The notes under the pieces were generated by a model, which saw only the letters and a program-made list of their open reading frames with translations, was not told the DNA's origin and ran no database searches. 64,000 nucleotides of DNA. Origin: Candidatus Latescibacterota bacterium (GTDB taxonomy: Bacteria; Latescibacterota; UBA2968; UBA8231). The position numbers and the translations under genes were made by a program. Where the stretch lies: assembly GCA_965206595.1 (NCBI GenBank), contig OZ242214.1:2624001-2688000 (forward strand), written 5' to 3'. This document shows, piece by piece, positions 10,962 to 48,729 of this stretch (position 1 is the stretch's first letter; each line of letters opens with the position of its first letter).

Positions 10962-11034
10962 AGCGCCCGGCCTGTCTCATGCGGAGACAGCCGCCATACC
11001 TCCCACTTGGGACTGGGGGGAAGGGGACAACGAA

Positions 11035-11601
11035 ATGAGGCGCATAATTGCAGTAGTGTTCGGATTGGCACTATGGGGATGTGGCGATCAGACCCTATCT
11101 CCGGTAGCGCCGAAGCTTGTAGCAGAGGGAGATTCAACGGCAACAGATGCAGGAAACAATGCGGCACAGTGCGTCGTCGTAAATATTCAGGGCGACAACA
11201 TCCAAGTTCACGGAGCCTCGGATGTGAACATCGATACGGTAGCCGTGTCCACGGTAACGGACACCGTCGTAGTCCAAGCAGGGTTTTCGATGTTGTTGTT
11301 GGAGTTCCAGGGCTACAATGACAACAGTCTGGACTGGGTCTCCAATAGAGAAGGGTGGACTTACTGGGATGAGAGAATCTCGGAAGAGTCCGTACGTGGC
11401 GTGTTTATGGCTACTACCGAATGGCTCGAAGCCCCGCCTGCAGATTGGACGCCGTTCGATTCCTTTCCAGATGTGCAGGAAGAACATGAATTGACTGTTG
11501 GGGATGGTTACATCTTCGTCAAAGACCCCCAACAGGAATTTCAGCGTTACAGCGAAGGCAGCACGAGGATGGGTTACTATTTGGGGATTGTGCTATTTTA
11601 G
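11035..11601 (+). CDS. Hypothetical lipoprotein (transposon cargo)
   Basis: MRRIIAVVFGLALWGC lipobox. Confidence 0.7.
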   Translation: MRRIIAVVFGLALWGCGDQTLSPVAPKLVAEGDSTATDAGNNAAQCVVVNIQGDNIQVHGASDVNIDTVAVSTVTDTVVVQAGFSMLLLEFQGYNDNSLDWVSNREGWTYWDERISEESVRGVFMATTEWLEAPPADWTPFDSFPDVQEEHELTVGDGYIFVKDPQQEFQRYSEGSTRMGYYLGIVLF

Positions 11602-11612
11602 TAGGCAATGTC

Positions 11613-11657
11613 TAAGGTGCTTGCAGGGCAACGGTCTTTCCTCCTGCAAGCACCTTA
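11613..11657. repeat. Perfect 15-bp inverted repeat
   Basis: TAAGGTGCTTGCAGG (11613-11627) / CCTGCAAGCACCTTA (11643-11657), 15-nt spacer, abutting AAGGAG RBS. Confidence 0.85.
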
Positions 11658-11676
11658 AAAAGGAGAAAAGCAAACC

Positions 11677-11901
11677 ATGCCTAAGGGACCGAATGGACAA
11701 ACAAGGCCAGCAGGGGTCACTCAGTGTGCCGTGCACGTGGCCAGGATTGCCATTGGCGAAATCGAGGACACTGGTTACAAGCATCCTGTCCAAGCAGAGA
11801 ATGGAAGCAAGGGCGGGAAGGCTCGTGCTTCCATTCTGACGCCTGAGCGGCGTAGGGAAATTGCCAAGGCTGCTGCTGAAGCTCGATGGAAGACAACTTA
11901 G
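11677..11901 (+). CDS. Small basic protein of the type commonly found beside IS1-family transposases
   Basis: RBS AAGGAG; GSKGGKARASILTPERRREIAKAAAEARW motif. Confidence 0.75.
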   Translation: MPKGPNGQTRPAGVTQCAVHVARIAIGEIEDTGYKHPVQAENGSKGGKARASILTPERRREIAKAAAEARWKTT

Positions 11902-11904
11902 TTT

Positions 11905-12234
11905 GTGATTAATGAGGAAGGAAAAGAACGACAATTGATTTACGCCATTATTTCCCTCGACAACGAGAAATCAGAAGAAATCCATGAAGCAATTGCCAGC
12001 ATTAAATCGACTATCTCAGCTGAAACCGCAACAAAAAAATTCCGCCAAGTACAAAGCATTTATCAGCCTAATGACTTGCGTCATATCAGCTTTATAGCAT
12101 TTTCCGGCAGCGTAAATGAACTGTGCGACTTGCTTGGACTAATTGAAATAAAGCACCTTGCAGTTGCCTTAAGTCATATCGGAGGCAGGGGGTCAACCGA
12201 ATTGGTTAATTGGATAAAGGCATATAATGGCTGA
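11905..12234 (+). CDS. Hypothetical protein (cargo)
   Basis: Open AT-rich ORF packed between neighbours. Confidence 0.55.
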   Translation: MINEEGKERQLIYAIISLDNEKSEEIHEAIASIKSTISAETATKKFRQVQSIYQPNDLRHISFIAFSGSVNELCDLLGLIEIKHLAVALSHIGGRGSTELVNWIKAYNG

Positions 12235-12505
12235 CGGACAGGAGTTTGGTGGGGGGACAAAGAAGCTTACTGAAGGCGGAAGGGTCAATATAGAACTTAT
12301 TGAGCATCGGGTAAATGAAATCGCTAACGACACAAAACAGCAAGGAAAAGAAATCAATTCGATCAATATAATTGTCACAGAGATTAAGACGGGGATGATT
12401 ACGAGAAAGGAGATTTTTACAACTGGAGTTATCATTATGGCAAGTCTTTTGATCGCTGTTTTTGCAGCGTTCGTTGCCATTTTCTTTCAGAAAATAACCG
12501 CATAA
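12227..12505 (+). CDS. Hypothetical protein with coiled-coil-like segment and C-terminal TM helix
   Basis: Overlaps upstream stop; hydrophobic GVIIMASLLIAVFAAFVAIFF tail. Confidence 0.6.
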   Translation: MADGQEFGGGTKKLTEGGRVNIELIEHRVNEIANDTKQQGKEINSINIIVTEIKTGMITRKEIFTTGVIIMASLLIAVFAAFVAIFFQKITA

Positions 12506-12508
12506 CCC

Positions 12509-13414
12509 TCACGAAAACACCAAATCCTCGTCGTTGTAATCTCTTTCTCGCTTCTTGTATTTCTTCGGACGCTTTGGCTTCGGCGTCCGCTTGTCGATCA
12601 GCCCCACAATCCATTCCAGGCTCTTCTCTTCCTTGGTCAGCCCCGCTGCAACTGCTGGTGTGGTTTCAAGAGTCATGTGCGGCCGTACCCAGTTGTAGTA
12701 GGTGAAGAATAGGTGGAGCATATACCTGTGGTTCTCAAGTTTCTTTGAGAACCCGTTTGTCTTTCGTGTATAGCGGCGCATACCCATACGCATGGTAAGG
12801 TTCATGCGCTCAACGTATGATGTGCCCCCTTCTTCGCTGTCGCCGATAACGATCACCTTTTCGGTTTCCGTTACGGTGGAGTTGCTATATCCTGCTCCAT
12901 CGTCGTACCCGTACGACTTCACAAGTTGGGTATAGTTGACGCGGTTCCCGAATGTACTATGGACAGCCTCGGGGTAAGCGCCAAAGGCATCGGATGTGAT
13001 TTGGACCTTGGGTTTTCGGGGCAGGATGATCTTCCCCTTCAACTTACCCATGAAGCGTTTGGCCGTTGTCAGGTTCCTGCCACCAACTTCCCAAGCAATC
13101 ATCAACTTGGTGTCGGGATCGAGTGCCGTCCATGTCCAAATGCTTCCAGCCTGAGAAGGCGCGGCTTGCGCTTGCGGGACATTCTTCTCTTTGGCATGGA
13201 GAAATGACCATATTTCATCCAATTCTACGCGCGCACACCTGATTCGGCGTGCATGCACTGCCTCATAGATGCTGCAAGCCTTCCCCGCATCTACGAGCAG
13301 TTTTACCACCGAATTGACAGCACAATCAGCCGACCTGGATATGGAGCGGATCGATGCACCTTCTACCAGCATGGAGAGGATGGTAACTCGTTTATCTATT
13401 GACAGTTGTTTCAT
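12509..13414 (-). CDS. IS1-family DDE transposase
   Basis: N-terminal HTH (EGASIRSISR), VELDEIWSF, WTALD, ITSD, TSYVERMNLTMRMGMRRYTRKTNGFSKK; ATG 13414 after AAGGAG. Confidence 0.88.
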   Translation of the reverse strand: MKQLSIDKRVTILSMLVEGASIRSISRSADCAVNSVVKLLVDAGKACSIYEAVHARRIRCARVELDEIWSFLHAKEKNVPQAQAAPSQAGSIWTWTALDPDTKLMIAWEVGGRNLTTAKRFMGKLKGKIILPRKPKVQITSDAFGAYPEAVHSTFGNRVNYTQLVKSYGYDDGAGYSNSTVTETEKVIVIGDSEEGGTSYVERMNLTMRMGMRRYTRKTNGFSKKLENHRYMLHLFFTYYNWVRPHMTLETTPAVAAGLTKEEKSLEWIVGLIDKRTPKPKRPKKYKKRERDYNDEDLVFS

Positions 13415-13492
13415 TTCGTTGCTCCTTGACGTTAGTGAACAAAAAGGATACATTTATACACTATCAAAGGCCGAGGCATAGAAATGCCTCGT

Positions 13493-13584
13493 TGGCGGCG
13501 AGGGTGGGATTCGAACCCACGATGCCTCTCCCGAGACATGCCTGATTATAAGTCAGGTGCGTTTATCCACTCCGCCACCTCGCC
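13493..13584 (-). tRNA. tRNA with UAU anticodon (reads Ile AUA) on a serine-type class II body
   Basis: GGCGAGG/CCTCGCC acceptor stem, G73, encoded CCA, anticodon arm CCTGA-CTTATAA-TCAGG, 7-bp variable arm ATGTCTC-GGGA-GAGGCAT, T arm GTGGG-TTCGAAT-CCCAC. Confidence 0.93.
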
Positions 13585-13625
13585 CTTTGTCCCGCCGATT
13601 GCAGTCGGCGGTGATTCTTCCTGCT

Positions 13626-13657
13626 ACGGCGTCCCGCCAATCTCGGCGGGACGCCGT
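13626..13657. repeat. Perfect 13-bp hairpin in the tRNA leader region
   Basis: ACGGCGTCCCGCC-AATCTC-GGCGGGACGCCGT; a second hairpin CCGCCGA-TTGCAG-TCGGCGG lies at ~13592-13611. Confidence 0.8.
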
Positions 13658-13750
13658 TCTGTTTTTACCTGAACATAAATATACGAAATTTTCTGCTTAG
13701 CCGGAAGGGATTTCTCCCCAGGTTGGTTTACATAATGTGTCGATCTGGAC

Positions 13751-13789
13751 AAAAAAGAACCCGGCTCTTCACTGAGAGTCGGGTTCTTG
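13751..13789 (-). terminator. Rho-independent terminator of the SLATT-like gene
   Basis: AAGAACCCGACTCT/AGAGCCGGGTTCTT stem followed by a T run on the minus strand, just after the stop at 13808. Confidence 0.7.
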
Positions 13790-13807
13790 CGAGTGGAAGC
13801 AAGGATT

Positions 13808-14332
13808 TTAGACTGACTGACTTTCCTGTGCAACAAGAGTGTGAGGTCGGATGTCCCATAGCTGCTTGAATAGCCTTTGGTACCAACTCACCTTGGGAAA
13901 CTCACTTGGGTCGTTGCCCTGCGCTCGCATCATTTCAATATGACAGACTATATCCAGCACACGGAGTGGCTGAGGCTCCCTTGACTCGATGGCCAGCCGT
14001 TGTGCTGTGATGTCGGCCAGGAACCCTTGCAGATCGTCATCCTGCAAGTTTCTGCTTCTTTCCATCTGTTGTTGAAGTTGAATGAAGCCCTGCTTGAGTT
14101 CTCCGTGCAGCAAGGCTTTTTCGTTTACCCTGAAGACGAGCATGAATCCTAAAAGAGCAGCACTTGCCACAGAAATCGCATGGTGGCCTTCTATTACGGC
14201 ATAGATAGACAGCATAAAGGCGCCAAATAGAAACCAGTTATGCGCGGCCCTGAGAAAGGATTCGCGGTACGTATGATACCGAATAGATCGGCAGATGCCG
14301 AAATGGAGATTGTGGTAAACTGTGTCAGTCAT
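13808..14332 (-). CDS. SLATT-like two-TM protein
   Basis: RSIRYH..R..F, two TM helices, EKALLH..LK..F..L helical C-terminus; ATG at 14332. Confidence 0.6.
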   Translation of the reverse strand: MTDTVYHNLHFGICRSIRYHTYRESFLRAAHNWFLFGAFMLSIYAVIEGHHAISVASAALLGFMLVFRVNEKALLHGELKQGFIQLQQQMERSRNLQDDDLQGFLADITAQRLAIESREPQPLRVLDIVCHIEMMRAQGNDPSEFPKVSWYQRLFKQLWDIRPHTLVAQESQSV

Positions 14333-14513
14333 TTCCCTTCTTTTTTGGTGGGGGAGCCGGAGGTAATGTGTCGGAGATTGGCTCGGGGGCAATGTCGTCC
14401 CTAACTGCTCTCTTTTCTTGTTCCTCCGTGAGGATTTTTCTTTCTGTATCTGGCCGAGAAGGTGCAGGCTGCGTATCGGGTTTGGGTTCGGATGATCTGC
14501 GCTTGGATGCCAT
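14325..14513 (-). CDS. Small Pro/Lys-rich peptide overlapping the start of the SLATT-like gene
   Basis: 62 aa ending PPAPPPKKKGND; stop overlaps downstream start. Confidence 0.5.
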   Translation of the reverse strand: MASKRRSSEPKPDTQPAPSRPDTERKILTEEQEKRAVRDDIAPEPISDTLPPAPPPKKKGND

Positions 14514-14754
14514 TTCCCTTTTTCCTTAGTTCAATGACTGCTGAGACTGTTCACCCGGAAAATACTGAAAGCCTGCAACGGTGCAAAGAAGTTTCCTCTC
14601 CCCAGTCCCCCAAGGGGATTATTGGAGGGGTTAGCCCTCAATTCTGGGTGGGCGATCCGTCACCAGAAATGGTGACAGAATTTCAGACTGATACACTACC
14701 CCGCATTCTTGGTCAGCACCTGCACCTCATCTTACGGACCTTCTCAACATCCTT

Positions 14755-15132
14755 GGTGGGAAGGAATCGAACAAGCATCAGGACAAGAAGCTGAACGCCG
14801 GACGCGGGACCGTCGGCAAGCAGGCGGTCGTCGGGATCCGCAATCGCAAGACGAAGGAGATCCGGGCGGAGCTGGTCGGCGATACCAAGGCCGACACCCT
14901 GCAGAGCTTCGCGGCCGATTTCGTCGAGCAGGAAGCCGTCAAGTACACGGACGAATCACCGTCCTACGGGGGCATGAAGAACCACGCCAGCGTTAGCCAT
15001 TCCACCGGTGAGTACGTTCGCGAGATGGCCCACATCAACGGGATGGAGTCCTTCTGGGCCACGTTGAAGCGAGGCTACGCCGGAACCTTCCACCGTCGGC
15101 CGGCGAATTCATTAACGGACTTAATCCAGTAG
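14755..15132 (+). pseudogene. IS1595-family transposase internal fragment
   Basis: Not in the ORF track; frame from 14755 reads GGKESNKHQDKKLNAGRGTVGKQAVVG...YTDE...VSHSTGEYVREMAHINGMESFWATLKRG. Confidence 0.85.
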
Positions 15133-15134
15133 AT

Positions 15135-15347
15135 TTGGCAGAGTTAGATTCTGAGCTACAAAAGAGGAAGAGAGCGAGGAAAATGACGAATGAAGAAATA
15201 GGCAGCGCTGCAGAATCAGCGCTTCACCGTCGAACCAAGGCCAAGCGGATTTCGGAGATCTCCCGGTTGGTCAGTGCTCTCCGTGAGGCCCGGAAAGATT
15301 TCGACCAAGCTAATCAGCGCTTGGCTGACCTCGGATATCCTATCTGA
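15135..15347 (+). CDS. Hypothetical protein (IS1595 cargo)
   Basis: Short helical ORF following the transposase remnant. Confidence 0.4.
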   Translation: MAELDSELQKRKRARKMTNEEIGSAAESALHRRTKAKRISEISRLVSALREARKDFDQANQRLADLGYPI

Positions 15348-15350
15348 TCA

Positions 15351-15513
15351 CATGAGCCAGGATAATCAGAAGCAGCAGAAGCAGAAGCCAGGTCGCCCCG
15401 AGCGCCTCATGTCATTCGACGGCACCGCGGAGGAGTTAGCCCAGGCGCTGTTCGCCCGGGCCCGAAAACCTGTCCGGCCTAAGCAAGAGCAGGAGGATGA
15501 GACTGAGAAATGA
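15351..15513 (+). CDS. Small hypothetical protein (IS1595-associated)
   Basis: MSQDNQKQ...GRPERLMSFDGTAEELAQALF; start approximate. Confidence 0.45.
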
Positions 15514-15528
15514 TCAGGGGAGGGTACT

Positions 15529-16119
15529 TTGGCGCGTAGAGCGGATCAAACGAAAGGCGTCTTTTGCCTTGAAACGCATAAGTGGTTTAACAGGAAGGAT
15601 GAGACCACGATTGAGCCCATCCTGGATCTACTGCGAAAACAGCAGGGGAGGAATTGGTCTTACCGCTACCGAGATGTCGCTACGGAAGCTGAATTCCGGT
15701 TCTTTCTTGGGGAATACCTGACACCCATATACGATAGCTTTCCCGTTCTGTACCTGGGATTTCATGGCGAAAATGATAGCATTATCCTTGCGGACAAAAC
15801 GGTCATGTCGCTGGACCGAATCCGACTCGCAATAAATGGCCGGTGCAATGAGCGGGTAATATACTTCGGTTCCTGCGGCACCATGAGCGTACATGGCAAA
15901 CGGCTGAAGTCGTTTTGCAAATCGACTGAGGCGCTAGCCGTATGCGGATTCAAGGAAGAAATCGATTGGTTGCAGGGGGCGGCCTTCGAGCTTCTTATCC
16001 TGGGAACGCTTCAGAGCGTGCCGTTTACTAAGGAGGGGATGGAAGAATTCGACCAACGCCTGAAGGCGCAATCGCCCGGTCTATACAGAAATCTCGGGTT
16101 CCGCTTGGAGACGGCCTGA
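15529..16119 (+). CDS. DUF6642-like protein (caspase/CHAT-like His-Cys pattern)
   Basis: GVFCLE, IEPILDLL, LYLGFHG, IYFGSC, VCGF...DW. Confidence 0.65.
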   Translation: MARRADQTKGVFCLETHKWFNRKDETTIEPILDLLRKQQGRNWSYRYRDVATEAEFRFFLGEYLTPIYDSFPVLYLGFHGENDSIILADKTVMSLDRIRLAINGRCNERVIYFGSCGTMSVHGKRLKSFCKSTEALAVCGFKEEIDWLQGAAFELLILGTLQSVPFTKEGMEEFDQRLKAQSPGLYRNLGFRLETA

Positions 16120-18354: not shown

Positions 18355-19730
18355 CCGGACCCTGCCCCGTTTCCACACCCCGTTCATCGAACCCAGCGGG
18401 CGGGTTTCCCGCACTGGGCTCTCGGACGAGATCATGCCTTCGCCCACGGAAAGCGGGTCGTGCGCGGTCCAAGGCGAGTCAGCCCGTGGTCTTGCCACAG
18501 GTACCGGTCCGGGAAGCGCACGTATTTCCCGCCTCCCACCTTGTGCTTACGACACAGCCACTGGCGCAACCGCCGGGTCGCGTGCCGGTCCACCGCGGCG
18601 TAGGCCGGGCTCACTTGGCCCAGGATGAAGTAGTTCGCCCACCCGGTCATGAGCCGGTTGAGGCGACCTACCACCACCTCCGGGGCCAGCAGTCCGGATC
18701 CCCGCGCGGTCAGCTCGCTGAGCCGGCGGCAGAGGCTTCGGACGCTCGCCGCGCTCGGGCGCGTGCCCAAGTAGGCCCGACCCGTGTCCCGGCGATAGAT
18801 GCGTCCGATCCGGTAGCCGAGGAACTCCATCGCCTCCTCCGGCACCCGGTAGCATCGGGTTTTCTCGGTGTTTATCGGCAGTCTCAGTTGCGCCATGAGC
18901 CGCTCGACCGCCGCCCGCATCGTGGCGGACGGGGCTTGGCCGAGCGCCCGGACGTCATCGGCGTACACGACGATCTCCGTCTGGAAGCGCCGGGCATAGC
19001 CCCGCACCTTCCAGCCGAGAATGAAGCGACGCAGGTAGATGTTGCTGAGCAGCGGAAAGATCGGCGCCCCCTGCGGGGTCCCTTGGCGCTCTCGACGCGC
19101 CCGGTTCGTGCGGCGGGTGCCGCCTTCCCCGTCGTCTTCCTCTACCGCCATCTCCAACCACGCCTTGATCCAGCCCAGCAGGCGCCCGTCGCTGAGGCGG
19201 CGGGCCAGGGACTTCATCAATTCCGCGTGGGGGATCTGGCCGAAGTAGTCCGACAGATCCGCGTCGACCACCTCCCGGTGGCCCGTGTTCAGCAGCCGAT
19301 GCACGCGCTGAACGGCGTCCAGCGCGCTGCGGCCCGGTCGATAGGCATACTGTCCGGGGGCAGGTCCGCTTCGAAAATCGGCGACAACACCATCATCGGC
19401 GCCGTCTGCGCTACCCGATCCCGGAGACAAGGGATGCCCAAGGGCCGGTACTTCCCACGTTGCTTCTTCGGAATCAGGACCTGCCGTACCGCCTGCGGCC
19501 GGTAGGTCCCTTCCTTCAGGTCCCGCGCCCGTTCCCCAAGCCACCGCTCCACTCCGTACGACTCGACGTCCGCTACCGTCTTGCCGTCCACCCGGCGGCG
19601 CCGCCATTACCGCGGACCTCCTGCCAGGCGACGGCCAGTACATCGGCGCGCCACACCTTGTCGCACAGCGAGTAGAATCGGAAGCCGGGAGCTTCCTTCG
19701 CTTTGGCATGTAGCGTCGTCTGGAAGCGTG
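18355..19730 (-). mobile_element. Degenerate group II intron: frameshifted RT/maturase plus domain V and partial domain VI
   Basis: AKAKEAPGFRFYSLCDKV, RPLGIPCLRDRVAQ, GTPQG, YADD, GWANYF in shifting frames; DV GAGCCCAGTGCGGGAAACCCGCCCGCTGGGTTC at ~18389-18421. Confidence 0.88.
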
Positions 19731-19731
19731 A

Positions 19732-19800
19732 TAGCCGGCGTAGTCCATTTTATCCCGGTTGTTGCGGGCGTAGCCCAGTTCGGTGGTCGCCTGGGGATGG
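19732..19800 (-). mobile_element. Short transposase-like remnant (ISKra4/ISLre2-like)
   Basis: ELGYARNNRDKMDYAGY abutting the truncated intron. Confidence 0.4.
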
Positions 19801-20330
19801 CGCGGTTGACCAGGTCGGGAGACTATGAGACAGATCGTTCGACACCTCGACATACTTCGGACCCTGCAAGCCCAGCGCCACGGTATGAATTTGGAGGAGG
19901 TCGGGTTTCTGCTCGACCAAACCCGGCGGGACGACCAGCACGTCTACTACCAGCTACAGAAAGAGGCGGGGATGCCGCTGAACTTTCCTGTCATGGTCGC
20001 GTCGATGCGCCCACGATGACATCGCCACTTCCACCAGTTGCGGCGCACGTTCAGGACCGACTTCATCGTCAAGCGCAACCTGCGCCCCCCAAATCGAAGT
20101 AGACCTGGCTCGAGGAGCTAACGACCACAAAGGAGCTTACCTGCCTTGACAGAGGGCTAAGAAGGTGCCTCCTTTCCCCAATATACCGGTCGGGTCTAAA
20201 GGGCTTCGGTCAAGCCGGGAACGCCGATGCAGGCTTGGAAGCTTTGTTGCAGGTGTGGGCGATACGGCCGTTTACGTCGCGGCGATCTAGGCGGACGACC
20301 TCGCCGCCGCCAGCGTAGGATCATGCTCTT

Positions 20331-20525
20331 ATGAACTGGTGTCAGCTACTGAACTCCTTACGACGCCGACAGACGACAATTTCGAGCGGTCCCCGCAGTG
20401 AATTCCAACGAGACTTCGACCGCTCGGTCTTTTCGACGCCAGTAAAGCGCCTGCAGGACAAGGCTCAAGTCTTCCCGCTGGAGGCGCACGACGCAGTGCG
20501 CACTCGCCTGACCCATTCGCTCGAG
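20331..20525 (+). pseudogene. dgt: dGTP triphosphohydrolase N-terminal fragment
   Basis: RSEFQRDFDR.VFS...KRLQDKAQVFPL...VRTRLTHSLE, then IS3 sequence. Confidence 0.85.
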
Positions 20526-21141
20526 CATCAATCGGGCGATGCGCTTGGGACTGACGCCGGGCCCCTCCTCGGCCAGTTCGACCCGTATCCTAGGCGCCCC
20601 GTAGGTGCCCCGAGAGCGTGGGTGGATCTGCTCGACGCGCCCCTTGAGCACGGCATCGGCTCGGGTGCCCGACGGCGGGCGTTTCAACCAAGCGTAGTAG
20701 CCGCTGGGGAGACCTTCAGCACGCGGAACATCGTCAGCACCGGAAAGGGGCTTGGTGCGCTCTCAGGAACTCGTAGACTGGCCGGACCCCGAGTCGGCCT
20801 CGGGAGCGAACCACGCCGTGGCTTTTGCCAAGATCTCCCGTTCTATACGCAGTTGCTTGTTCTCACGGGGAAGGCGCCGCAACTTCTCCTGCTCCGTACT
20901 GGAGGGCCCGTCGCGGCGCACCCCCTCGTCGCGTTCGGCCTAGATCACCCAGTTCCGGATCGTCTGCCCGGACGGCTCGAATTCCTTGGCCAGCGCTTCC
21001 GGGCTATACGACCCACTCGTACGAGTTCCACCATCTGTTGCCGGGTTTCCGGTGGATACGGACCATGTGGTTTCGACATGATTGGACACCCTCCTTTCCC
21101 TCTCCAAGAAATGAAGTGTCCACGAAATCGGGTCAACTCCA
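20526..21141 (-). mobile_element. IS3-family remnant (orfA + start of orfB)
   Basis: End TGGAGTTGACCCGATTTCGTGGACAC at 21141; PYPPETRQQMVELVR, YGAPRIRVEL, frameshifts and stops. Confidence 0.85.
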
Positions 21142-21163
21142 GGTAGTATGAAAAGGCTGACGC

Positions 21164-21502
21164 TTGGAACTCGCTTTCGAATCAAGGCAGCTCCGTTTGA
21201 TCTGTGAGAACGAAGCTTTTGCTAAGGAGCATCTTGGACTTGAGGTCGCTGCAGTTCTCAAACATCGCTTAGCGGACCTACGTGCTGCTAGTTCCATTGC
21301 TGACCTTATGGTGGGAAATCCTCGTCGACTTGCAACTGGAGCCCACAACTATTTGGCAGTGGACCTATGCCAAGGGTATCACATCCGTCTCACTCCGAAT
21401 CACCCCAAGAATCCGGTAAGCGTTACGGATGACCTTGACTGGAAAAAGGTTACCCGGATCAGGATAACTCACATACAGAGAGGGGATCATGACCAATCCT
21501 GA
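21164..21502 (+). CDS. HigB-like (RelE-fold) toxin
   Basis: LAFESRQLRLICE...RLADLRAA...DWKKVTRIRI; overlaps downstream antitoxin. Confidence 0.75.
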   Translation: MELAFESRQLRLICENEAFAKEHLGLEVAAVLKHRLADLRAASSIADLMVGNPRRLATGAHNYLAVDLCQGYHIRLTPNHPKNPVSVTDDLDWKKVTRIRITHIQRGDHDQS

Positions 21503-22604
21503 AGGATTCCGGCCTGATTGGATCTCTGCACCAGGGGATACCATTTTAGACATTCTGGAGGATCGGGAGATTTCACAGGAATCGTTTGGGAAGAGTATGG
21601 GCATCTCTAATTTGGAGACAAATTACCTTCTCAGCGGCCGCTCTACGGTAACAATGGCGATTGCTCGTCGGCTCACGAGAATACTCGGAGCTTCTGTAGA
21701 ATTCTGGATTACCCGCGATTTCCAATTTCGGCAAGATGCCAAACCCATAGAGGATGAGGAAGAAAATTGGCTTCGGCAACTTCCAGTGGGAGACATGATC
21801 AAGTTTGGATGGCTAGAACCGCCACCTCATCCATCAGAAGAATTCGAGGCGTGCAAAGCATTCTTCGCGGTGTCTAGTGTCCGTGAATGGCACCAGTATT
21901 ATGGAAGCCCCAGAGAAATGGCGTCCTATAGATCTTCGCCTTCCTTTGAGTCGCACCAAGGAGCGTTGGCAGCTTGGCTTAGGCAAGGCGAAATCCTGGC
22001 TACCAAGATTAACTGCCAGAAGTGGCACGCGGATAGATTCCAGAAGTCCTTAGCCAGAATTCGTGTGCTTACGCGCCAAAAAGACCCGAGTCGGTTTGTC
22101 CCACAGTTGCAGGAAGCGTGTTCGGAAAATGGAGTAGCCACGGTAATCGTTAGGTCGCCCAGTGGTTGCCGGGCAAGTGGTGCTACCAGATTCTTATCTC
22201 GAAACAAAGCTATTCTCCAACTCAGTTTTCGTTACCTAACGGACGATCAATTCTGGTTTACTTTTTTTCACGAGGCAGGTCATCTCCTGCTGCACGGGGA
22301 GAGGCGGTTCTTCTCAGCAACACTAGGAGACGAGAAACCTTGGATCTTAGAAGGTTTCGAGATGCCAGTCGCTGCGGGAGAAGAAGAAGAAGAAGAAGCA
22401 AATCAATTTGCCGCCGACAATTTAATTCCTTCGGAATTCCAGAGAAACCTTCTCTCGCTTCCTCCCGAGTCGAAAACAGTGCTCCGATTTGCCCGTCGCG
22501 TGGGGGTATCCAGCGGAATCATAGTAGGACAATTGCAGCATCACGGCCGAATCGGCTACGACCAGATGAACAGGCTCAAGCGGCGATTTGTATGGCAGGA
22601 TTGA
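21489..22604 (+). CDS. HigA-like XRE antitoxin fused to an ImmA/IrrE metallopeptidase domain
   Basis: SAPGDTILDILE HTH; DQFWFTFFHEAGHLLLH (HExxH); EEEANQFA. Confidence 0.88.
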   Translation: MTNPEGFRPDWISAPGDTILDILEDREISQESFGKSMGISNLETNYLLSGRSTVTMAIARRLTRILGASVEFWITRDFQFRQDAKPIEDEEENWLRQLPVGDMIKFGWLEPPPHPSEEFEACKAFFAVSSVREWHQYYGSPREMASYRSSPSFESHQGALAAWLRQGEILATKINCQKWHADRFQKSLARIRVLTRQKDPSRFVPQLQEACSENGVATVIVRSPSGCRASGATRFLSRNKAILQLSFRYLTDDQFWFTFFHEAGHLLLHGERRFFSATLGDEKPWILEGFEMPVAAGEEEEEEANQFAADNLIPSEFQRNLLSLPPESKTVLRFARRVGVSSGIIVGQLQHHGRIGYDQMNRLKRRFVWQD

Positions 22605-22605
22605 A

Positions 22606-23532
22606 CTAGCTGCGGAAGGGGATGAATCTGTGAGGGCTCTTCTGCCAGTTACAGAGAGCGTCCTCCAAGACCTGCATCCCGAGATTCAACTCGGACCCTA
22701 ATTCGACCAGCCACTGGTTGATTTGGGCTGGTGTTGCAGGGGTTCCGAACAAGAGACGGGCGCCCCGGATCGGGCCAGTCGAATTCTGAATGTACGGGGA
22801 GTCCGCCTCAACATTGGCTAGTCCTAACTTGCCTAACATGGTCAAATAGTCGAATCGAGCGGTCCTACCGAAACTAGCGATTTGCTCCATGCTGTGGTAA
22901 AGCTCACGGAAGGCCACCCGTGGAGACCCACGGGCATTCTGGAGGACTTGGTTCATTAGTCCCTCGTGGGTTCTGGGAGGCCCAACCCACTGAACATATG
23001 TTTGAACGGCGGCGCCAGTTCCGGTGGGGGAGTATGCATCGAGGCTTTGATACTTTCGATGGTTGCCAAACCCACCGGAGATTCTCAATGCATCTTGGTG
23101 GGAGGCTAACCACGCTCGAAAGCGGGCTGGATCGGCACTTGTGGTAGCCCAATCCCATCTGTGAGGTCCCCCAAGAGCGCCGTATACTTCGCGCGCATAC
23201 CGCCAGCCGCCTCGTTTATGTTTTCCGAAATGGACGAGGAAAAACACCATCCAGAAGGCTTCCTCCGTTTGGCCTTGGCGGTGAAAAACGATTGCGGCCC
23301 TCAGAGGGTCAAAATAGCCAGGATTAGAGGGTTCTGAACGACGTTGGGAAATGTCCCTTGTTCTGAGGACCGACACGAATCGGACGCGCCTTGTGCTCTC
23401 GATGACCTGGGCGACAAAGGATTCACGATGCGCGAGGTCTGCCAAGCCTAGAAGTTGGCGGCTATGCCGGTGAAACGCAGCTAACTGGTGGGAAAGTCGC
23501 TGCGCTGCGTGGCGGTCACGGGGCCTAATCAT
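22606..23532 (-). CDS. Alpha-glutamyl/putrescinyl thymine pyrophosphorylase clade 3-like protein
   Basis: FDPLRAA, FGNHRKYQSL, FGRTARFDYL, GPIRGARLLFG, LEDALCNWQKS; ATG 23532 overlaps upstream stop. Confidence 0.75.
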   Translation of the reverse strand: MIRPRDRHAAQRLSHQLAAFHRHSRQLLGLADLAHRESFVAQVIESTRRVRFVSVLRTRDISQRRSEPSNPGYFDPLRAAIVFHRQGQTEEAFWMVFFLVHFGKHKRGGWRYAREVYGALGGPHRWDWATTSADPARFRAWLASHQDALRISGGFGNHRKYQSLDAYSPTGTGAAVQTYVQWVGPPRTHEGLMNQVLQNARGSPRVAFRELYHSMEQIASFGRTARFDYLTMLGKLGLANVEADSPYIQNSTGPIRGARLLFGTPATPAQINQWLVELGSELNLGMQVLEDALCNWQKSPHRFIPFRS

Positions 23533-24356
23533 TCCCTTTCCTCGATCATCCGGGCGATCCAATCGCCGATTGCGAGAATGACCTCCTTTGTGACGCCAAA
23601 ACTGCTCTGAAGGTTATGGTTAAAGCCGAGAATAGAAAGATCGCGGTCAAGGGGAACCCCGCAAACGTCACTTATAACGCCTGTATAAGCGATACCTTTC
23701 ACCTTGTGACCTGAAGCTCTTCCTAAAAACCAATCTGGGACGACTTCTGCTGTCAGGCAAGACCCCGAAAGAGATTGGAAACCCCTTACGACGGAAGTGC
23801 CATTTAGGATTAGAGTCCGAACCGAGGAATCCCGAAGAATAGTAGCCAGGGTGTCTCCAGCTAGGGTAAGGAGTAGGGAGCGCTGTTGGTTAGGGAGATC
23901 CGCCCATTTGCTTAGTGTTGCATAGGGTACTAGATCTAGATGGCAAGCGTTAAATAGAGGTGGATAGTAGGAGACTCTAGCACCCCTAAGTATTGAGTCC
24001 AGCTTTTTGAACCAGACATCATAAGGATTGGAGGCAAAATAAGATCGGTAAGACTCAAGAATCGATTCAAGATGCCTAGCGTCGGCATCAGCCCAAGTCT
24101 GTAACCCCAGGGAGGCAAGGGTTGGAAATCTGCGGAGTTCTCCCTTCAACTCATTACCTGAGGCATCCATGAATTCCCGGGAACTAGGATTAATACCTAT
24201 AGTTGCTAGCTGGGGAGTGGACAAATCTCCGAAGGAAATAACCGGACAACTCCAAGGTATGATGCCGGCCTGAGTAGTCGTAGGCCTGTCGAGGTAATCT
24301 ATCAACTTGGCTGCGGCCGAAAGCACCCCATGAGGAGTCCGCCTAGGGGAGATCAT
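23529..24356 (-). CDS. Hypothetical protein, probable uracil-DNA-glycosylase-like fold
   Basis: PVISFGD...LATIGINPS..EF, HLDLVPYAT..W, LILNG. Confidence 0.55.
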   Translation of the reverse strand: MISPRRTPHGVLSAAAKLIDYLDRPTTTQAGIIPWSCPVISFGDLSTPQLATIGINPSSREFMDASGNELKGELRRFPTLASLGLQTWADADARHLESILESYRSYFASNPYDVWFKKLDSILRGARVSYYPPLFNACHLDLVPYATLSKWADLPNQQRSLLLTLAGDTLATILRDSSVRTLILNGTSVVRGFQSLSGSCLTAEVVPDWFLGRASGHKVKGIAYTGVISDVCGVPLDRDLSILGFNHNLQSSFGVTKEVILAIGDWIARMIEERE

Positions 24357-25084
24357 GTTAAGCGATTCATGTTAAGCGGTTATGGAGTCTGGTAATGTAA
24401 GGGTGGTAGACCTCTGAAGACATTTCCCCTTTTAGGTGTGAAATCTTCTTAAGATTATGGTCTTTGTAAGCTCGAAAGACCAAGAGCAGCCTAATGAGAT
24501 CGGACCAGTAAGAGGGTATAGTGTCAAGGGTGTTTGAGTCAAATTGCCCTTTAATCCTGATAGCGCGTTCTGCGGCGAGCACGAGGTCAATTGCTGCCTG
24601 GGGGTTTCCTTCGGGCATAGGCTCCATCACGTTCTGGGTAGGTTGCCAGCCCTCTTGGAGGAACCTTGTGGCCATTTCCTCATTTTTTGTGTACAAGTGG
24701 AGACTGCCGACCATGTGTTTATATCTCCCGAGGTTTGCAGAGAGAGTGCGGGCGATGATTTCCTGGATCATGGTAAAACAGAAAATGTCGTGAGGTAAAC
24801 CAACGTAAGCGTCGTTAGACCTCATGTGGGTAATCATCTGAAGGTGGTTGCGTCGGAGCATGAATTGGAGAGTACAGGTACACGGAACGTCCTTGTGTGG
24901 TACCAAAAGGTCATTTGCATCGAACAATTGAACTACCGCTTGTCGGGATTGGGGTTTCCGACGAAGAATAGTAACTACATTCTCAAACTGATTGAGCCCG
25001 CGCCAGTTGAATAGTCTTGGGCCGTAGCCACCAAAGAGCGTGGTTCCTTCTGCGTGCAATTTATAATCGGGGATGTAGTAGGAT

Positions 25085-26944
25085 CCTTTGTTATTCATTC
25101 AACCCGCGCATAAGCGGACATAGGCGCTTCCGAGACCCCTTTGCTTAGCCTCAGAGGCTTGCGTCCCTTCTATAGTCGGCTTTTTGGGTAGAGCCGTCTC
25201 CTTATCTCTACCGACCTTGTTGAAATTGTACGCGCCTTCTCGAAGACGCTTGCCTTTGCGAGCCCATCATCCCGACCGACCCGGCCTGCGCTTACGCCAT
25301 CGCCGCGTCCACCGGTTTGAGCGTGGCCAGAAATCTCCACAGACGATCCCAGGCAGCCGCCGTCCCTTGGGTCAGGATGACGCCCACCCTGCGCCCATGC
25401 AAGGTGACGCGGGACGGCAGGCGCAGGTAGCGCCGTCGAAAACTGTCCAGGCTCAGGGCCGTCGTCGAGCGTCCGTATGTGCGGGGCCGCCCGCGTCGGG
25501 CCTCGGCGCGTTCGGCGGCCTGGCGGCCCAGGTGAAGCAGGTTGTAGGCCAGCAGGTTCAAGGTCAGAAGCGCCTGGTTGGCAGCGAAGGCATCCCGGGA
25601 CGGGGTGCGCTGACGCGGCTCTCGACCCCGGTAGTGTTGCTTGCGACGGGTGGTAGAGGAGAGCTGAGGCTGGAGGGTGGAGCTCAACTCGCCGAGCATG
25701 CGCTCGAAAAGGCCGCGCTGACGATAAAAGGCGACCAGGTCGCGGCCGCTCATCGTCTGGGGACTCTGGTCGGTGATCAGGAAGAAGTGGCGGGCGATGG
25801 GCAGCTCTTCCGTCTCGGAAGGGACCAGGACCAACACCACCCGCCGGGGCTGCGCCCAGGACCTGGCTTGATAGCGCAGCTCGCGACAGCGAAAACCCTC
25901 TTCCCGCAGCTCTTCCGGGTGCTGCGCCAGCTCCTGCTGATAGCCTTCCACCCAGGCACGAGCCAGCTCCTCCAGGCGCGCATTCTTCTTGATGCGCGCC
26001 ACGTACGAGGTGTCGGCCCGCGCTTCCAGCTCACTCAGGAAAGACCCGCTCACCGAGGCCGCGTCGAAGCGCAGGATGAGGCGCCGGGCCAGATGCGACT
26101 GAATCCAGTCCAAGCGCTTGCCGAGAGCCTCTGAGGCGCCCTCATGGGCGTGCACGTTGCCCGGCCGCAGCACGGCACCGAAGAAATCGCCCGTCTGCGC
26201 CGAGCCGAGGAGCAGGGGATGGTACCCCGAGGCGTGGAAGTAGCCGTTGTATTCGACCCCCGCCTGGTGCCCGTGCGCCGGCATCGGCAGGGCATCCATG
26301 TCGACGGCCAACTCCTCGTATTTCATCCGTCCTTCCAGCAGCCGGCAACGAGACCGGGCGCTGCGCAGGACGGCTTCCTCCAACACCTCGCGGTTATAGG
26401 CAGTCGAGGCTTGCTCGAGCAGGCGCGACAGCGTCGGCTGACTGGCCAGTCCCTGCGGCCGGTCTTCGTCGCCGCTGCGCAACGGCGCCTGCCCTTTGCG
26501 ATCGCTGACCGCCAGACGCAGGATCGGATCTTGGCGCAACGCGTCGGCGTCGTCGGCGTGGGTCCAGCCCTGTGCCAGCAGCACGATCTGTGTGCGCAGC
26601 AGCTCCGGCAGCGGGTGCGTGATCTGGTCTTGGGTACGGAGATCCTCGAAGTGGGCGTCGACCCAATCCAGAACCCGGCTGTGTTCGAGCAGTTGACGCA
26701 ACATCAGCGCACCGGTGTCGCTGCCAAGGTGGGTGGGGCGGGCTTCGATGTGGATGGAGCGGTTGAAAGACGGCTGAATCGGCCCGGCTTGCTCGGACTC
26801 GGTGTGTGACGGTAATTCACCCATTGGGTGTCCTACTGTGTGATGGGTTCAAAGGGCGATACTGCCTTGTGTTTCCCTCTGAAATCTAAGCATGGGAGGC
26901 ACCCAGTACAGCCCTCTCCACTAAAATTCCATGAATAACAAGGG
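25085..26944 (-). mobile_element. IS1380-family element, copy 1 (1860 bp, intact)
   Basis: TIRs CCTTTGTTATTCAT / ATGAATAACAAGGG; 5-bp TSD AGGAT (25080-25084, 26945-26949). Confidence 0.92.
25292..26824 (-). CDS. IS1380-family transposase
   Basis: GSDTGALMLR, LASQPTLSRL, VDMD, HGHQ...YNGYF...YHPL, LRFDA, FYRQRG..E. Confidence 0.9.
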   Translation of the reverse strand: MGELPSHTESEQAGPIQPSFNRSIHIEARPTHLGSDTGALMLRQLLEHSRVLDWVDAHFEDLRTQDQITHPLPELLRTQIVLLAQGWTHADDADALRQDPILRLAVSDRKGQAPLRSGDEDRPQGLASQPTLSRLLEQASTAYNREVLEEAVLRSARSRCRLLEGRMKYEELAVDMDALPMPAHGHQAGVEYNGYFHASGYHPLLLGSAQTGDFFGAVLRPGNVHAHEGASEALGKRLDWIQSHLARRLILRFDAASVSGSFLSELEARADTSYVARIKKNARLEELARAWVEGYQQELAQHPEELREEGFRCRELRYQARSWAQPRRVVLVLVPSETEELPIARHFFLITDQSPQTMSGRDLVAFYRQRGLFERMLGELSSTLQPQLSSTTRRKQHYRGREPRQRTPSRDAFAANQALLTLNLLAYNLLHLGRQAAERAEARRGRPRTYGRSTTALSLDSFRRRYLRLPSRVTLHGRRVGVILTQGTAAAWDRLWRFLATLKPVDAAMA

Positions 26945-27664
26945 AGGATATGAAATCAAGTTCATTGGTGCCCGCCAAATACCATAGCAACTCACCCAAA
27001 CAACTGAAGGGTTTCCCTTTGGTCTCCGTCCGACTAATTCGGGCCAATGGATTTGAGATCTCAATGAGCGCGCCCGTTATTTCCTTCGCTTGGCCCTTGG
27101 TCGGTTCGATGAGTTCTCCGGATGACAGTAGCTCCTTAATGGCTAGCCGCATTACGTCGTCAAGAGTGTCGCCCGAGAAAGAGTGTGCGTCCATTTTGGC
27201 CCCTTTGGAGTGATCGGGGGTCTTTTTTGGACCGAGTCCGCTGGGCATTTACCACCGGGATAGGTTTGTGGTCAAAGGGCCAATCCTTGAGTACAAGGGA
27301 AGAGAAATTTCGTGACTACCGCTATGGGGATAGACACAAGGAGGAATCCAATGACGGACCCCGCGATTGATGCAATTAGAGGCTCTGATAACATCTCGGT
27401 CTTCTCCCTTTGGTTTAGTGGTGAGGTTGGAATGTTTCTCCGTGTTTGAGGTGAGATCCTTTGAATATAGCTCGGACTGGGGGTCGTCCCCCAAGTCTGT
27501 GGGGTCTGGGGTCTGTTGTTCCCGCTAACTCGGGCGGAGGGCGCACACTTCTCGCACTCGACGAAGCTACCACGCCAACCCCACCCCGCGCTGCCGCAGA
27601 TCCTCGCGGCGGCGCCCGTAATCCGGCATGATCCCCCCAAAGCGCCAATAACCGCATTTGGGCT

Positions 27665-28953
27665 TCATGGTTGGGGTTCCTCCTCGTTGAATTCCTCCCG
27701 GGCGAATCCTTCATCGTCCACATCCAGCAACTCAATCCTTCGCTTGCGGACGCCTATGCCGTGCTTGATGAGAAGATCAATCAGCTTTTCGCCGTCGATG
27801 AGCGTGATGGGGGCTGCCCCGGTCGCGAAGGCAGCCTCCTGGGTGCCCTTGGCAAATCGAGAGGTGGTGACGATGGTCCCACGAACCGCGTCGAAGCGAT
27901 AGAGCGAACCGCGGAGGTGCGTCGAGGGCGCTGCGGGGGACGCTTCCTCGATGGCGCTTCGCCTGCACGACTTCCCGGACCGACGTGATGCCCAGCTCAA
28001 TGTCGGCTACCACGTCGACGCCGCCGTCTCCCGACTGGGAAGTGACCTCCACGTTCTGGTAGTCCATCTCCTCCAACAGTCGCTTGATGAGGTGCTCGAA
28101 GTCGAAGGGGTCCATATCGTGGAGCATCTCATGCAGGGTTTGGCGAACCCGGGTTTGCTGCTGCCGAACCAGATTCCAGACTTCGTTGTCGTCTCCGGCG
28201 GCCTCGTCTCCGGTCTTCTTGAGGTAAGCCAAACCCTCCGGGGTCGCCGAGTAAGCAAACCTCCTCCGCTCGACCATTCCACGCTCAAGGAGGTTTTTCA
28301 GTCGGTAGCTCATCGTATTTCTGATAGTGGACTCGGCGCGGAAGGGGGAGCGGCCCCCCGCCAGGTACTCCCCCCACTCCTCGACGAACCCTCCCGCCCA
28401 TGCCGGACCGTTGTTCGCCACAATGAAGAGCAGCTTGACCAAGCCCTCGCCTTCATCGACAACCGCCTCGGTTTCACCCCCCGGATGCTTTTGGAAATCC
28501 CGGCCGGCTTGGGCGAGTTGAAGCACACCCTCTCCATCGACGCCGAGGAGCTGGTAATGCTGCGCGAGCTGCCAATGACCGTAGGTGAACCGGGGGTTCA
28601 CGGCACCTTTCGACTGATCCCAGATGGCCCGGGCCAGCTCGAGATCGTCGCCCGCGAGCCGCTGGGGGATCCAAGTGGCCGGATCGGTCCAGTCGACCAG
28701 TCTTCTGGGGAGTGCCGCGCAGTTCCAAGAGAGTAGATTGCAGACCGGTCACTTGCTTCCGCAGGCGACCGGGCCACACCCGCAGAAGATGGCGAACCTC
28801 CGAGTACACCGGGAAGTAGGGGATGCGAACCCGCACCTTGGCATCTTCGCTCGCCGCGCTGGCCTCTTCATTAGCGGCCCCGGCGACGGGGGCGACGTCG
28901 GGCTCGCGGAGCCCTCGCTGCACCCCTCTCAGGGAGAGGCCACTTCCGGCCAT
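27665..28953 (-). pseudogene. mrr: Mrr-like restriction endonuclease with two +1 frameshifts
   Basis: MDPFDFEHLIKRLLEEMDY, SGDGGVDV, VVQAKR, ITLIDGEKLIDLL; single extra bases near 28699 and 27917. Confidence 0.85.
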
Positions 28954-48644: not shown

Positions 48645-48729
48645 GACTTCTCCTTTCTCCCTTTATTTACTCTCCGGTCTTGCAGTCAACTCCCACCTGA
48701 ATGGATATCGTGCGGTTCTTCCTCATTCT

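Follow-up and report, generated by a model that had tools for sequence, protein, structure and literature searches.

Gene content of the locus

We followed up an original prediction, made from the letters of the sequence alone, that a 64,000-nucleotide stretch of a Candidatus Latescibacterota genome (positions 2,624,001 to 2,688,000 of contig OZ242214.1, assembly GCA_965206595.1; the whole stretch is hereafter the window, to which all coordinates refer) carries a three-gene operon for proteins resembling thymidylate synthase (TS), uracil-DNA glycosylase (UDG) and clade 3 of the aGPT-Pplases (Pplase3). The gene row is real. All three genes lie on the minus strand: a TS-like gene that runs from 27194 to 24367, a UDG-superfamily gene at 23529..24356 (275 aa), and the aGPT-Pplase clade 3 gene at 22606..23532, whose product of 308 aa, counted from the ATG of an ATGA overlap with the preceding gene, matches PF18746 at 321.8 bits (cut-off 25; E 5e-96; profile positions 2-278 of 279). 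The overlap (23532-23529) and the 10-bp gap between the TS-like and UDG-like genes (24357-24366) can be read directly in the window, and the three genes are of low GC content, as had been described (0.48-0.54 versus 0.63-0.66 in the flanks and in an insertion sequence (IS) that splits the TS-like gene).

The description of the locus as a three-gene operon held in part. The three genes do occur together elsewhere, but the unit consists of four or five genes, as it includes a convergent pair on the plus strand, and many copies do without the UDG-like gene. The first gene of the pair (21164..21502; 112 aa) is small and HigB/RelE-like. The second (21489..22604; 371 residues), whose start it overlaps by 14 nt, encodes a helix-turn-helix (HTH) domain of the HigA/Xre type fused to an M78 (ImmA/IrrE) peptidase, hereafter HTH-M78; it converges on the Pplase3 gene with 1 nt between the two stop codons.

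The TS-like gene is itself in two pieces, both on the minus strand. The N-terminal part (26945..27194) comprises 83 codons and one base and ends at the insertion point of the IS; it aligns with the N-termini of intact relatives and covers positions 4-84 of the 357-position thymidylate synthase profile phrog_5131 (E 1.4e-06). The C-terminal part (24367..25079) covers positions 95-233 of the same profile (E 3.1e-34), matches PF00303 at 1.1e-19, and holds the catalytic cysteine in VPCTCT, the motifs RSND, GLPHD and SLHLY, and a C-terminal helical region of the type found in MilA. Once the IS and one copy of its target duplication are removed, the pieces join in frame to give 321 codons including the stop, and at 63 of 68 related loci one uninterrupted frame spans both. 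The TS-like gene, and hence the cassette copy in this genome, is inactivated by the insertion.

The intervening element (25085..26944, minus strand, 1860 bp) has the features by which the IS1380 family is recognised, namely the transposase, inverted repeats, a short target duplication and multiple copies. Its transposase open reading frame (ORF; 25292-26824) scores 243 bits against NF033539 IS1380 (cut-off 180; E 3.5e-72) and matches DDE_Tnp_1_4 at 4e-64; the terminal inverted repeats are 15 nt long (25084-25098 and 26931-26945), and a 5-bp target-site duplication, ATCCT in minus-strand reading, adjoins the limits of the element at 25080..25084 and 26945-26949. At least 26 full-length copies at 100% identity, this one counted, are present in the 7.05-Mb genome, most of them matching query positions 2-1861; a further copy runs over contig ends, and others are at 98% and 89% identity. 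In three runs from one sample, contigs were ~40-60 times deeper over the IS than over its flanks. The knock-out is recent and is due to a highly active IS. No intact allele lacking the IS was seen among the contigs of these runs, from which rare variants drop out, and no contig joins across the element: those that cover the two flanks end 28-29 letters inside it, short of the 31 required for a bridge. The assembly may have been made from this very sample. A second full-length copy lies in the window at 45578-47436, and the element is in a burst. The value of the window copy, broken as it recently was, is that of a pointer to the family.

A cassette conserved across phyla and on mobile elements

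Relatives of Pplase3 were found in 238 stretches of a species-representative genome collection, in which 185,579 species have one genome each; we retrieved the best 80. Among these best 80 of 238, tblastn recovered the C-terminal part of the TS at 71 loci, the UDG-like gene at 58, HTH-M78 at 76 and the small gene at 68, most of the misses being explained by loci truncated at contig ends. A scan of IMG/VR added 28 loci in viral contigs, 27 with the TS, 27 with HTH-M78 and four with the UDG-like gene. By a family hidden Markov model, the small gene is present at 72 of the 80 genomic and 25 of the 28 viral loci. We then considered loci with at least 2.2 kb of upstream and at least 1.7 kb of downstream flank, which left 64 genomic and 19 viral-contig loci. 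The core set of TS, Pplase3, HTH-M78 and HigB-like genes is complete at 61 of the former (the exceptions are L018, L059 and L063) and at all 19 of the latter. The UDG-like gene is optional, being found in 48 of the 61 genomic cassettes and in two of the 19 viral-contig cassettes. The original prediction had reckoned with the possibility that its three genes do not co-occur elsewhere; they travel together widely.

The gene order is constant: the TS, the UDG-like gene where present, and Pplase3 lie on one strand, and the pair is convergent to them, with stop codons that abut or overlap. At one locus (L079) the pair is on the same strand as the operon, and at three (L049, L057 and L084) the UDG-like gene follows Pplase3, behind a small extra ORF. 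This ORF, of ~100 residues and conserved among the three, directly precedes the UDG-like gene, and an Xre-type HTH ORF lies on the other strand. Presumably it resembles DUF4031.

Pairwise identities of TS, Pplase3 and HTH-M78 are correlated over 56 loci (r 0.82-0.83, compared with a maximum of 0.26 in 500 label permutations). Such correlated divergence is expected if the cassette moves as one piece, and shared host ancestry would also contribute to it. Linkage to HTH-M78 holds across many phyla, at identities of 32-65%, and the cassette occurs in bacteria, plasmids and prophages of more than 10 phyla; record titles name Chloroflexota, Acidobacteriota, Planctomycetota, Verrucomicrobiota, Pseudomonadota, Bacteroidota, Actinomycetota and Myxococcota, among others. 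Pplase3 is single-copy in its own genome, and a search of 40 related genomes, two of them from its own genus, did not find it. The cassette is horizontally acquired here, and it is mobile.

Pplase3 is present on 10 of 72,556 plasmids, where the RefSeq labels on the cassette genes read thymidylate synthase, hypothetical protein, ImmA/IrrE metallo-endopeptidase and hypothetical protein. Several of the viral contigs carry the cassette at sites like those of morons: between head genes (L111), in a lambdoid early region (L118), or next to integrases (L100, L106 and L117). In L113 and L115 it stands beside DdrA-like anti-restriction genes of a P1-like element. Neither Pplase3, searched for by tblastn, nor the UDG-like gene had a match in 50,697 isolated phage records.

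To survey the flanks, 21 genomic loci were searched with Pfam, covering 150 of 158 ORFs. By inspection, genes for defence or from mobile elements (type I HsdR, TIR, SIR2 with HerA, Shedu, HNH, methylases, integrases and transposases) are present in 13 of the 21 flanks. No kinase and no further conserved gene was found in these flanks, nor was a kinase domain found in the five cassette genes. NUDIX hydrolase genes adjoin the cassette at three loci (L038:8553-8972, L066:8417-9319 and L100:3634-3936); one might speculate that these neighbours are accessory suppliers of dCMP from dCTP. Five UDG-less cassettes in viral contigs (L105, L106, L110, L116 and L117), which belong to one sub-group, carry, next to the HigB-like gene, a gene that matches phrog_14118 / phrog_8593 (function unassigned) at E ~1e-50. 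A division of the family into two deep clades, with and without the UDG-like gene, was considered and is unsupported: by simple identity, Pplase3 proteins are 0.47-0.49 identical within the two groups and 0.47 between them.

The TS-like enzyme is predicted to act on dCMP

Residues were tallied in family alignments of 61 rows for the TS, 77 for Pplase3 and 52 for the UDG-like protein, and a TS family profile was built from 60 intact members and the two window fragments. Searched against the PDB, this profile matched MilA, a CMP 5-hydroxymethylase (5jnh), over its full length at E 4e-69, and the best ThyA at 5e-28. The alignment places profile positions 9-293 on residues 8-303 of the 342-residue MilA chain, so that the extra C-terminal helical domain is included.

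The residues that set the substrate type have been described for MilA: Lys133 and Ala176 accompany ribonucleotide substrates, and Arg and Ser at these positions deoxyribonucleotides; the base is cytosine with Asp186 and uracil with Asn (PMC5175136). In the cassette family, the position of Lys133 is Arg in 60 of 61 rows, that of Ala176 is Ser in 61 of 61, and that of Asp186 is Asp in 61 of 61. The PC, RSND and LPHD motifs to which the original prediction had drawn attention are all in the window protein, their Cys, Ser and Asp are kept in every family row, and the Asp that stands where ThyA has Asn is indeed the cytosine-type residue of MilA and of the T4 dCMP hydroxymethylase (PMC5175136). The catalytic Cys, Glu, His and Tyr are each present in all 61 rows, and all four are in the window fragments. 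The family thus shares with MilA and T4 gp42 the base-specifying Asp and the Cys/Glu/His/Tyr set, and with MilA the full-length homology; its Arg and Ser are those of T4 gp42 and ThyA, unlike the Lys and Ala of MilA, and it has the whole residue set of the T4 gp42 type (Asp, Arg/Ser, catalytic Cys and Glu). Its genomic partners differ from those of both pathways. The TS-like enzyme thus has the architecture of MilA, while dCMP, its predicted substrate, is that of T4 gp42.

Sequence cannot tell a hydroxymethyl from a methyl product. The former is favoured because of the kinship with MilA and because of the nearest phage relative, gp319 of Bacillus phage G (33% identity), which is of the same Ser/Asp type and lies in a neighbourhood annotated with an alpha-glucosyltransferase, a kinase and a dCMP deaminase.

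In line with the original prediction, it is not the housekeeping thymidylate synthase, since a canonical ThyA (398 bits, full length) is encoded elsewhere in the genome; no ThyX was found there. With Asp in place of the uracil-specifying Asn in 61 of 61 rows, the family departs from ThyA, and none of the eight NCBIfam equivalog cut-offs for thymidylate synthase was reached, the best score being 66.7 bits against a cut-off of 174.55 (the window C-terminal fragment only). In a large protein collection the TS is fused to Pplase3 in one protein, a single sequence from one contig.

Pplase3 retains the catalytic residues of phage base-modifying enzymes

Clade 3 as a Pfam family reportedly stems from a computational study, that of Iyer et al. 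in 2013. Pplase3 also matches PF18724, the amino acid:DNA transferase family, at 1.2e-65; gp46 of phage PaMx11, which came out as its closest relative in the wide VIA search, matches the same profile at 1.6e-27. The structural model of Pplase3 (predicted local distance difference test (pLDDT) score 96.8) is all-helical, and its predicted fold is of the helix-hairpin-helix, DNA-glycosylase-like kind. Foldseek returned no PDB match to the model at E<=0.001, the few weak rows being glycosylases, and a sequence-level profile search of the PDB gave nothing meaningful.

In an hhalign comparison with gp46, E290, D291, C294 and W296 of Pplase3 fall on E243, T244, C247 and W249 of gp46, at a probability of 3.5% and over 17 columns. 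The E, D, C, N and W of the Pplase3 motif, which include the E290-D291-x-x-C294 string, are invariant in 77 of 77 clade-3 sequences. In gp46, Cys247 and Trp146 are reported to clamp the flipped base and Glu243 and Thr244 to hold a metal bound to thymine O4, with Glu243 and Cys247 counted as active-site residues (PMC11472151); the Cys and Glu of clade 2 are also described as essential (PMC8989533). The earlier suggestion of a link to phage pyrimidine-hypermodification enzymes is borne out in that Pplase3 retains the catalytic Glu and Cys of the phage transferases. Unlike gp46, it has Asp in place of Thr244 next to the catalytic Glu. This replacement of Thr by an invariant Asp recalls the TS, where Asn has given way to Asp, and may point to a cytosine-type base. 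One 666-aa protein (P0001, from one contig) joins integrase domains to a Pplase3 domain, and is probably an artefact of gene calling or assembly.

A UDG-superfamily protein of no described family

No sequence library recognised the UDG-like protein, and no Pfam family, PF03167 included, matched it at E<=0.01; the nearest Atlas cluster with PF03167, carried by 29% of its members, scores 0.92. Its structural model (pLDDT 94.9) has the alpha/beta fold of the UDG superfamily, which agrees with the original assignment. Foldseek gave 47 PDB matches at E<=0.001, headed by complexes of human thymine-DNA glycosylase (TDG) with 5-hydroxymethyluracil (5hmU), 5-formylcytosine (5fC) and 5-carboxylcytosine (5caC), followed by family 4 UDG, UdgX and SMUG1; the nearest structure is 4zby. 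The best hit of the UDG-like profile among PDB sequences, a retron reverse transcriptase at E 0.0058, was taken as chance.

A loop of the form G-[LI]-N-P-S follows strand 1 (50-54) in all 52 rows, and close to the C-terminus, at 246-252, stands another conserved motif, [NS]-H-N-x-Q-S-S. The Asn in the loop after strand 1 may follow the pattern of MUG, TDG and SMUG1 (GINPG or GMNPG). Two copies of a 12-nt string that includes the stop/start ATGA, spaced by 14 nt, are found at the junction of the TS-like and UDG-like genes (24355-24382, minus strand). The repeat suggests that a 14-bp tandem duplication separated an ancestral overlap of the ATGA type, which several relatives show; the 10-bp gap between the genes would thereby be explained.

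The convergent pair resembles two components of PD-lambda-2

The HTH-M78 protein matches Peptidase_M78 (2.3e-10) and, below its cut-off, the HigA antidote model TIGR02607 (5.4e-08). It also matches the PADLOC model PD-Lambda-2_B (PDLC03982) at 4.1e-25, with residues 18-353 on profile positions 63-377 of 402. The small protein has a phrog_3066 toxin-antitoxin (TA) toxin hit at E 0.006, an Atlas language-model score of 0.96 to the 'plasmid maintenance system killer' and RelE/ParE clusters, and, as a profile against the PDB, a best E of 0.77 to a 'putative killer protein'. Among 67 members, Pfam HigB-like_toxin matches two and no PD-Lambda-2 model matches any, the one PADLOC hit being to DpdC (one member, E 0.0098). 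RefSeq labels on its homologues side with a HigB/RelE-like protein, and on this soft evidence we regard it as probably HigB/RelE-like.

PD-lambda-2 is a system of E. coli (Vassallo et al., 2022; PMC9519451) in which, as in the cassette, a small HigB-like gene overlaps a gene for a HigA-type HTH-peptidase. In the published account, the HTH-peptidase B is toxic and is neutralised by the HigB-like A, and defence requires a third gene (PMC9519451). No model of component C, which is P4-antitoxin-like, matched any of seven window proteins, and in its place stands the convergent TS-(UDG)-Pplase3 operon; nor did a component A model match.

Homologous pairs occur on 33 plasmids, 23 of which are without Pplase3. 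Four of these plasmid pairs were inspected: one stands alone, one is beside a type I restriction S subunit, and two are beside multiubiquitin and ThiF genes. Dependence is one-sided, because the modification operon nearly always has the pair and the pair is often without the operon. On Rhodococcus (L093) and Streptomyces (L094) plasmids, and in the L066 flank, pair homologues are divergent to multiubiquitin, ThiF (E1) and E2-like genes, which suggests that one control module has been reused with different sets of effectors. A palindromic operator common to the upstream regions of the TS and HigB-like genes was looked for in the window and seven loci, and nothing shared was seen, a negative of little weight.

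Proposed role and mechanism

Known pathways of C5-pyrimidine hypermodification are phage tools against restriction that work on precursors of thymine and depend on a DNA kinase. The phage thymidine pathway consists of a dUMP hydroxymethylase, a 5-hydroxymethyldeoxyuridine (5-hmdU) DNA kinase, and an aGPT-Pplase of clade 2 (M6 gp51, ViI gp247, or PaMx11 gp46/PUGT). As in the cassette, a TS-fold hydroxymethylase goes with a helix-hairpin-helix enzyme of PF18724, and the Glu-x3-Cys motif is common to both, albeit on a weak alignment. Unlike that pathway, the cassette is bacterial or plasmid-borne and absent from the isolated phage records searched (0/50,697), its TS has the Asp of the cytosine type instead of the uracil-type residue, partners of the kinase, PLP, radical-SAM or FAD kind are lacking, and it comes with a TA-like regulator pair. 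The cassette thus sets the same two enzyme folds in bacteria, plasmids and prophages, with cytosine-type residues, no kinase, a new UDG branch and a TA-like protease/HTH pair. The literature searched gave no characterised system of this kind, so that the label "uncharacterised", applied to it at the outset, is apt.

We regard it as an even call that the cassette is a self-contained mobile conflict system built on 5-hydroxymethylcytosine chemistry, most likely directed against phages. In the first and firmest step of such a mechanism, the TS-like enzyme would hydroxymethylate dCMP at C5 with methylene-tetrahydrofolate. The product would then be phosphorylated by kinases encoded outside the cassette and enter replicating DNA, which is the weakest step. 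Pplase3 would flip the base, its Cys attacking C6 of the 5-hydroxymethyl pyrimidine and its Glu acting as general acid, and, by analogy with the phage amino-acid:DNA transferases, a group might be exchanged or attached at the 5-methylene without a kinase step to give a bulky or reactive base. In cassettes that have it, the UDG-like glycosylase could excise the modified base or its deaminated form, either leaving abasic sites or cleaning the host DNA. The HigB-like/HTH-M78 pair would control or trigger the operon, and may itself be toxic. Gene content, folds, catalytic residues and co-occurrence are the observed part of this picture; its chemistry and biological role are deduced from them, and the original idea of modification-based immunity is a reasonable hypothesis.

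In favour of this interpretation are, besides the enzyme assignments and the linkage of the genes set out above, the low GC content, the failure to find Pplase3 in the 40 related genomes, the carriage on plasmids, the moron-like prophage insertions, the defence or mobile-element genes in 13 of 21 flanks, and the resemblance of the convergent pair to A and B of PD-lambda-2, a validated defence system (PMC9519451). In the DefensePredictor study (Science 2026), the legend to Fig. 6F places aGPT-Pplase among predicted, unvalidated defence domains and names UDG and HTH with it, which is the same domain set as here, and the study validated a system with a TS and a 5-hmdU kinase; the names aGPT-Pplase, Pplase3 and PF18746 had no match in the supplements searched (PMC13092281). 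A further parallel is Brig1, described as an anti-phage glycosylase of the UDG superfamily that excises alpha-glucosyl-hydroxymethylcytosine (PMC11078745). Like the cassette protein, it has a UDG fold, 4ZBY as its best structural match, and defence or mobile contexts, a likeness that concerns structure and description. Unlike Brig1 and the TDG, MUG and SMUG1 branches, the cassette protein has no PF03167 match and is encoded in an operon with a synthase.

A more specific version, which we put forward tentatively and consider possible but doubtful as a whole, is that of immunity by a lethal mark. In it, 5-hydroxymethyl-dC nucleotides that the cell makes upon infection would be built mainly into fast-replicating phage DNA, where a kinase-independent, cytosine-directed relative of the transferases would make adducts or protein-DNA cross-links, in most versions followed by a glycosylase that creates abasic sites. 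A PD-lambda-2-like protease/HTH switch would fire the system, which would amount to a phage hypermodification pathway that bacteria have captured and now direct at phages.

Several points weigh against the conflict-system interpretation. No experiment on any family member was found in the literature searched, and no PADLOC model matched the TS, the UDG-like protein or Pplase3. No kinase was found, in the cassette or recurrently in the flanks surveyed, to carry 5-hydroxymethyl-dCMP (hm-dCMP) into DNA or to activate the hydroxymethyl group, where the phage enzymes need a phosphate. The UDG-like gene is not essential to the core mechanism, because 13 of 61 genomic and 17 of 19 viral-contig cassettes lack it. 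The hhalign mapping of the Pplase3 motif is of low probability (3.5%, 17 columns), with only one stretch aligned, albeit the catalytic one, and the HigB assignment of the small protein is weak. Eight of the 21 genomic flanks hold metabolic or transport genes only, and the copy in the window, being broken, is uninformative on activity in this organism. Finally, carriage by prophages and phage-plasmids fits self-modification equally well.

Self-modification is the first of the alternatives to be weighed, and we consider it unlikely. It holds that temperate phages, phage-plasmids and integrative elements hypermodify their own cytosines to escape restriction, as in Mom or hydroxymethylcytosine (hmC) pathways, with HTH-M78 timing expression to induction. 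The 28 loci in IMG/VR viral contigs fit with this idea, among them those in a head-gene module (L111) and a lambdoid early region (L118), as does the position of the cassette in L113, L115 and a Pantoea plasmid beside DdrA-like anti-restriction genes. The enzymes descend from phage modification pathways, and ImmA/IrrE-type proteases are typical induction switches. However, Pplase3 and the UDG-like gene are without a match in the 50,697 isolated phage records, many of the 238 relatives in the genome collection lie among ordinary chromosomal genes, and homologous HigB-like/HTH-M78 pairs stand alone or beside other defence-like genes. Moreover, the cassette is not accompanied by the dNMP kinase, dCTPase or host-dCTP-exclusion genes that cytosine-replacing phages carry, in contrast to the set in phage G.

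A pathway at the level of nucleotides, with no DNA substrate, seems rather improbable. Here the TS would make hydroxymethyl-cytidylate, and the glycosylase-fold proteins would process the free nucleotide or base further, to yield an antimetabolite, a signal or a poison of the pool, comparable to MilA/MilB in mildiomycin and BcmA/BcmB in bacimethrin synthesis. MilA is the closest solved relative of the TS, special C-terminal domain included, and MilB is reported to release free 5-hydroxymethylcytosine in the mildiomycin pathway (PMC4081090); a UdgX-dUMP complex is known (6ajp), the TS-Pplase3 fusion exists, and there is no kinase to carry the product into DNA. Against these stand the ribose determinants, which are of the deoxy type (Arg/Ser) rather than the Lys and Ala of MilA, and the nearest relative of Pplase3, which works on flipped bases in double-stranded DNA; nor are further biosynthetic, export or resistance genes conserved alongside.

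Distinctly improbable, in our view, is a sensor or effector directed at phages that already contain hydroxymethyl pyrimidines, in which Pplase3 and the UDG-like protein would attack hmC or 5hmU in the manner of Brig1 and the TS would act on the phage nucleotide pool, for example by binding or reversing hm-dCMP. A kinase would be unnecessary if the phage brings the modified DNA, Brig1, an anti-phage glycosylase of the UDG superfamily, again has 4ZBY as its best structural match (PMC11078745), and the top Foldseek hits of the UDG-like model are TDG with 5hmU, 5fC and 5caC. Yet Pplase3 is invariably partnered by the TS-like gene rather than by the glycosylase, and in known pathways the TS is described as supplying the substrate (PMC8989533); that all TS catalytic residues are kept argues for a working synthase. 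That an operon of nucleotide metabolism and a toxin-antitoxin pair unrelated to it are no more than chance travelling companions is very unlikely indeed: the pair is without TS or Pplase3 on 23 of 33 pair-bearing plasmids, and alone on one, but the reverse fails, with the pair at 61 of 64 genomic and 19 of 19 viral-contig Pplase3 loci, stop codons that abut or overlap, linkage to HTH-M78 across many phyla at 32-65% identity, and correlated divergence of the genes.

If the cassette is a conflict system that serves in defence, it would represent a new effector logic, the enzymatic marking or damage of replicating DNA by way of a modified nucleotide, and also a new DNA-modifying activity on cytosine derivatives, possibly useful for base-resolution chemistry. 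If it serves in self-modification, it would be a new bacterial or prophage cytosine hypermodification.

Surroundings of the cassette in the window

Directly upstream of the TS-like gene (27665-28601, minus strand) lies a gene for an Mrr-type restriction endonuclease (type IV, modification-dependent), which looks frameshifted. The ORF at 27777-28601 holds the N-terminal part and the first two thirds of Mrr_cat (PADLOC PDC-S02, 1.2e-62); from its translation, an overlapping ORF in another frame (27665-28000) looks like the C-terminal end of Mrr. The Mrr-like gene was considered as a member of the cassette and rejected, as it was next to the cassette in none of 80 related loci.

On the other side, just beyond the HigB-like gene, are a group II intron reverse transcriptase/maturase (RVT_1, GIIM) and, judged by eye, apparent IS3-type transposase fragments, at 18432-19853 and 20331-21150; the cassette therefore sits in a patch of mobile-element debris. 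Other stretches of low GC content in the window, at 11000-16000 and 48000-51000 (0.46-0.55 versus ~0.65), may be acquired islands.

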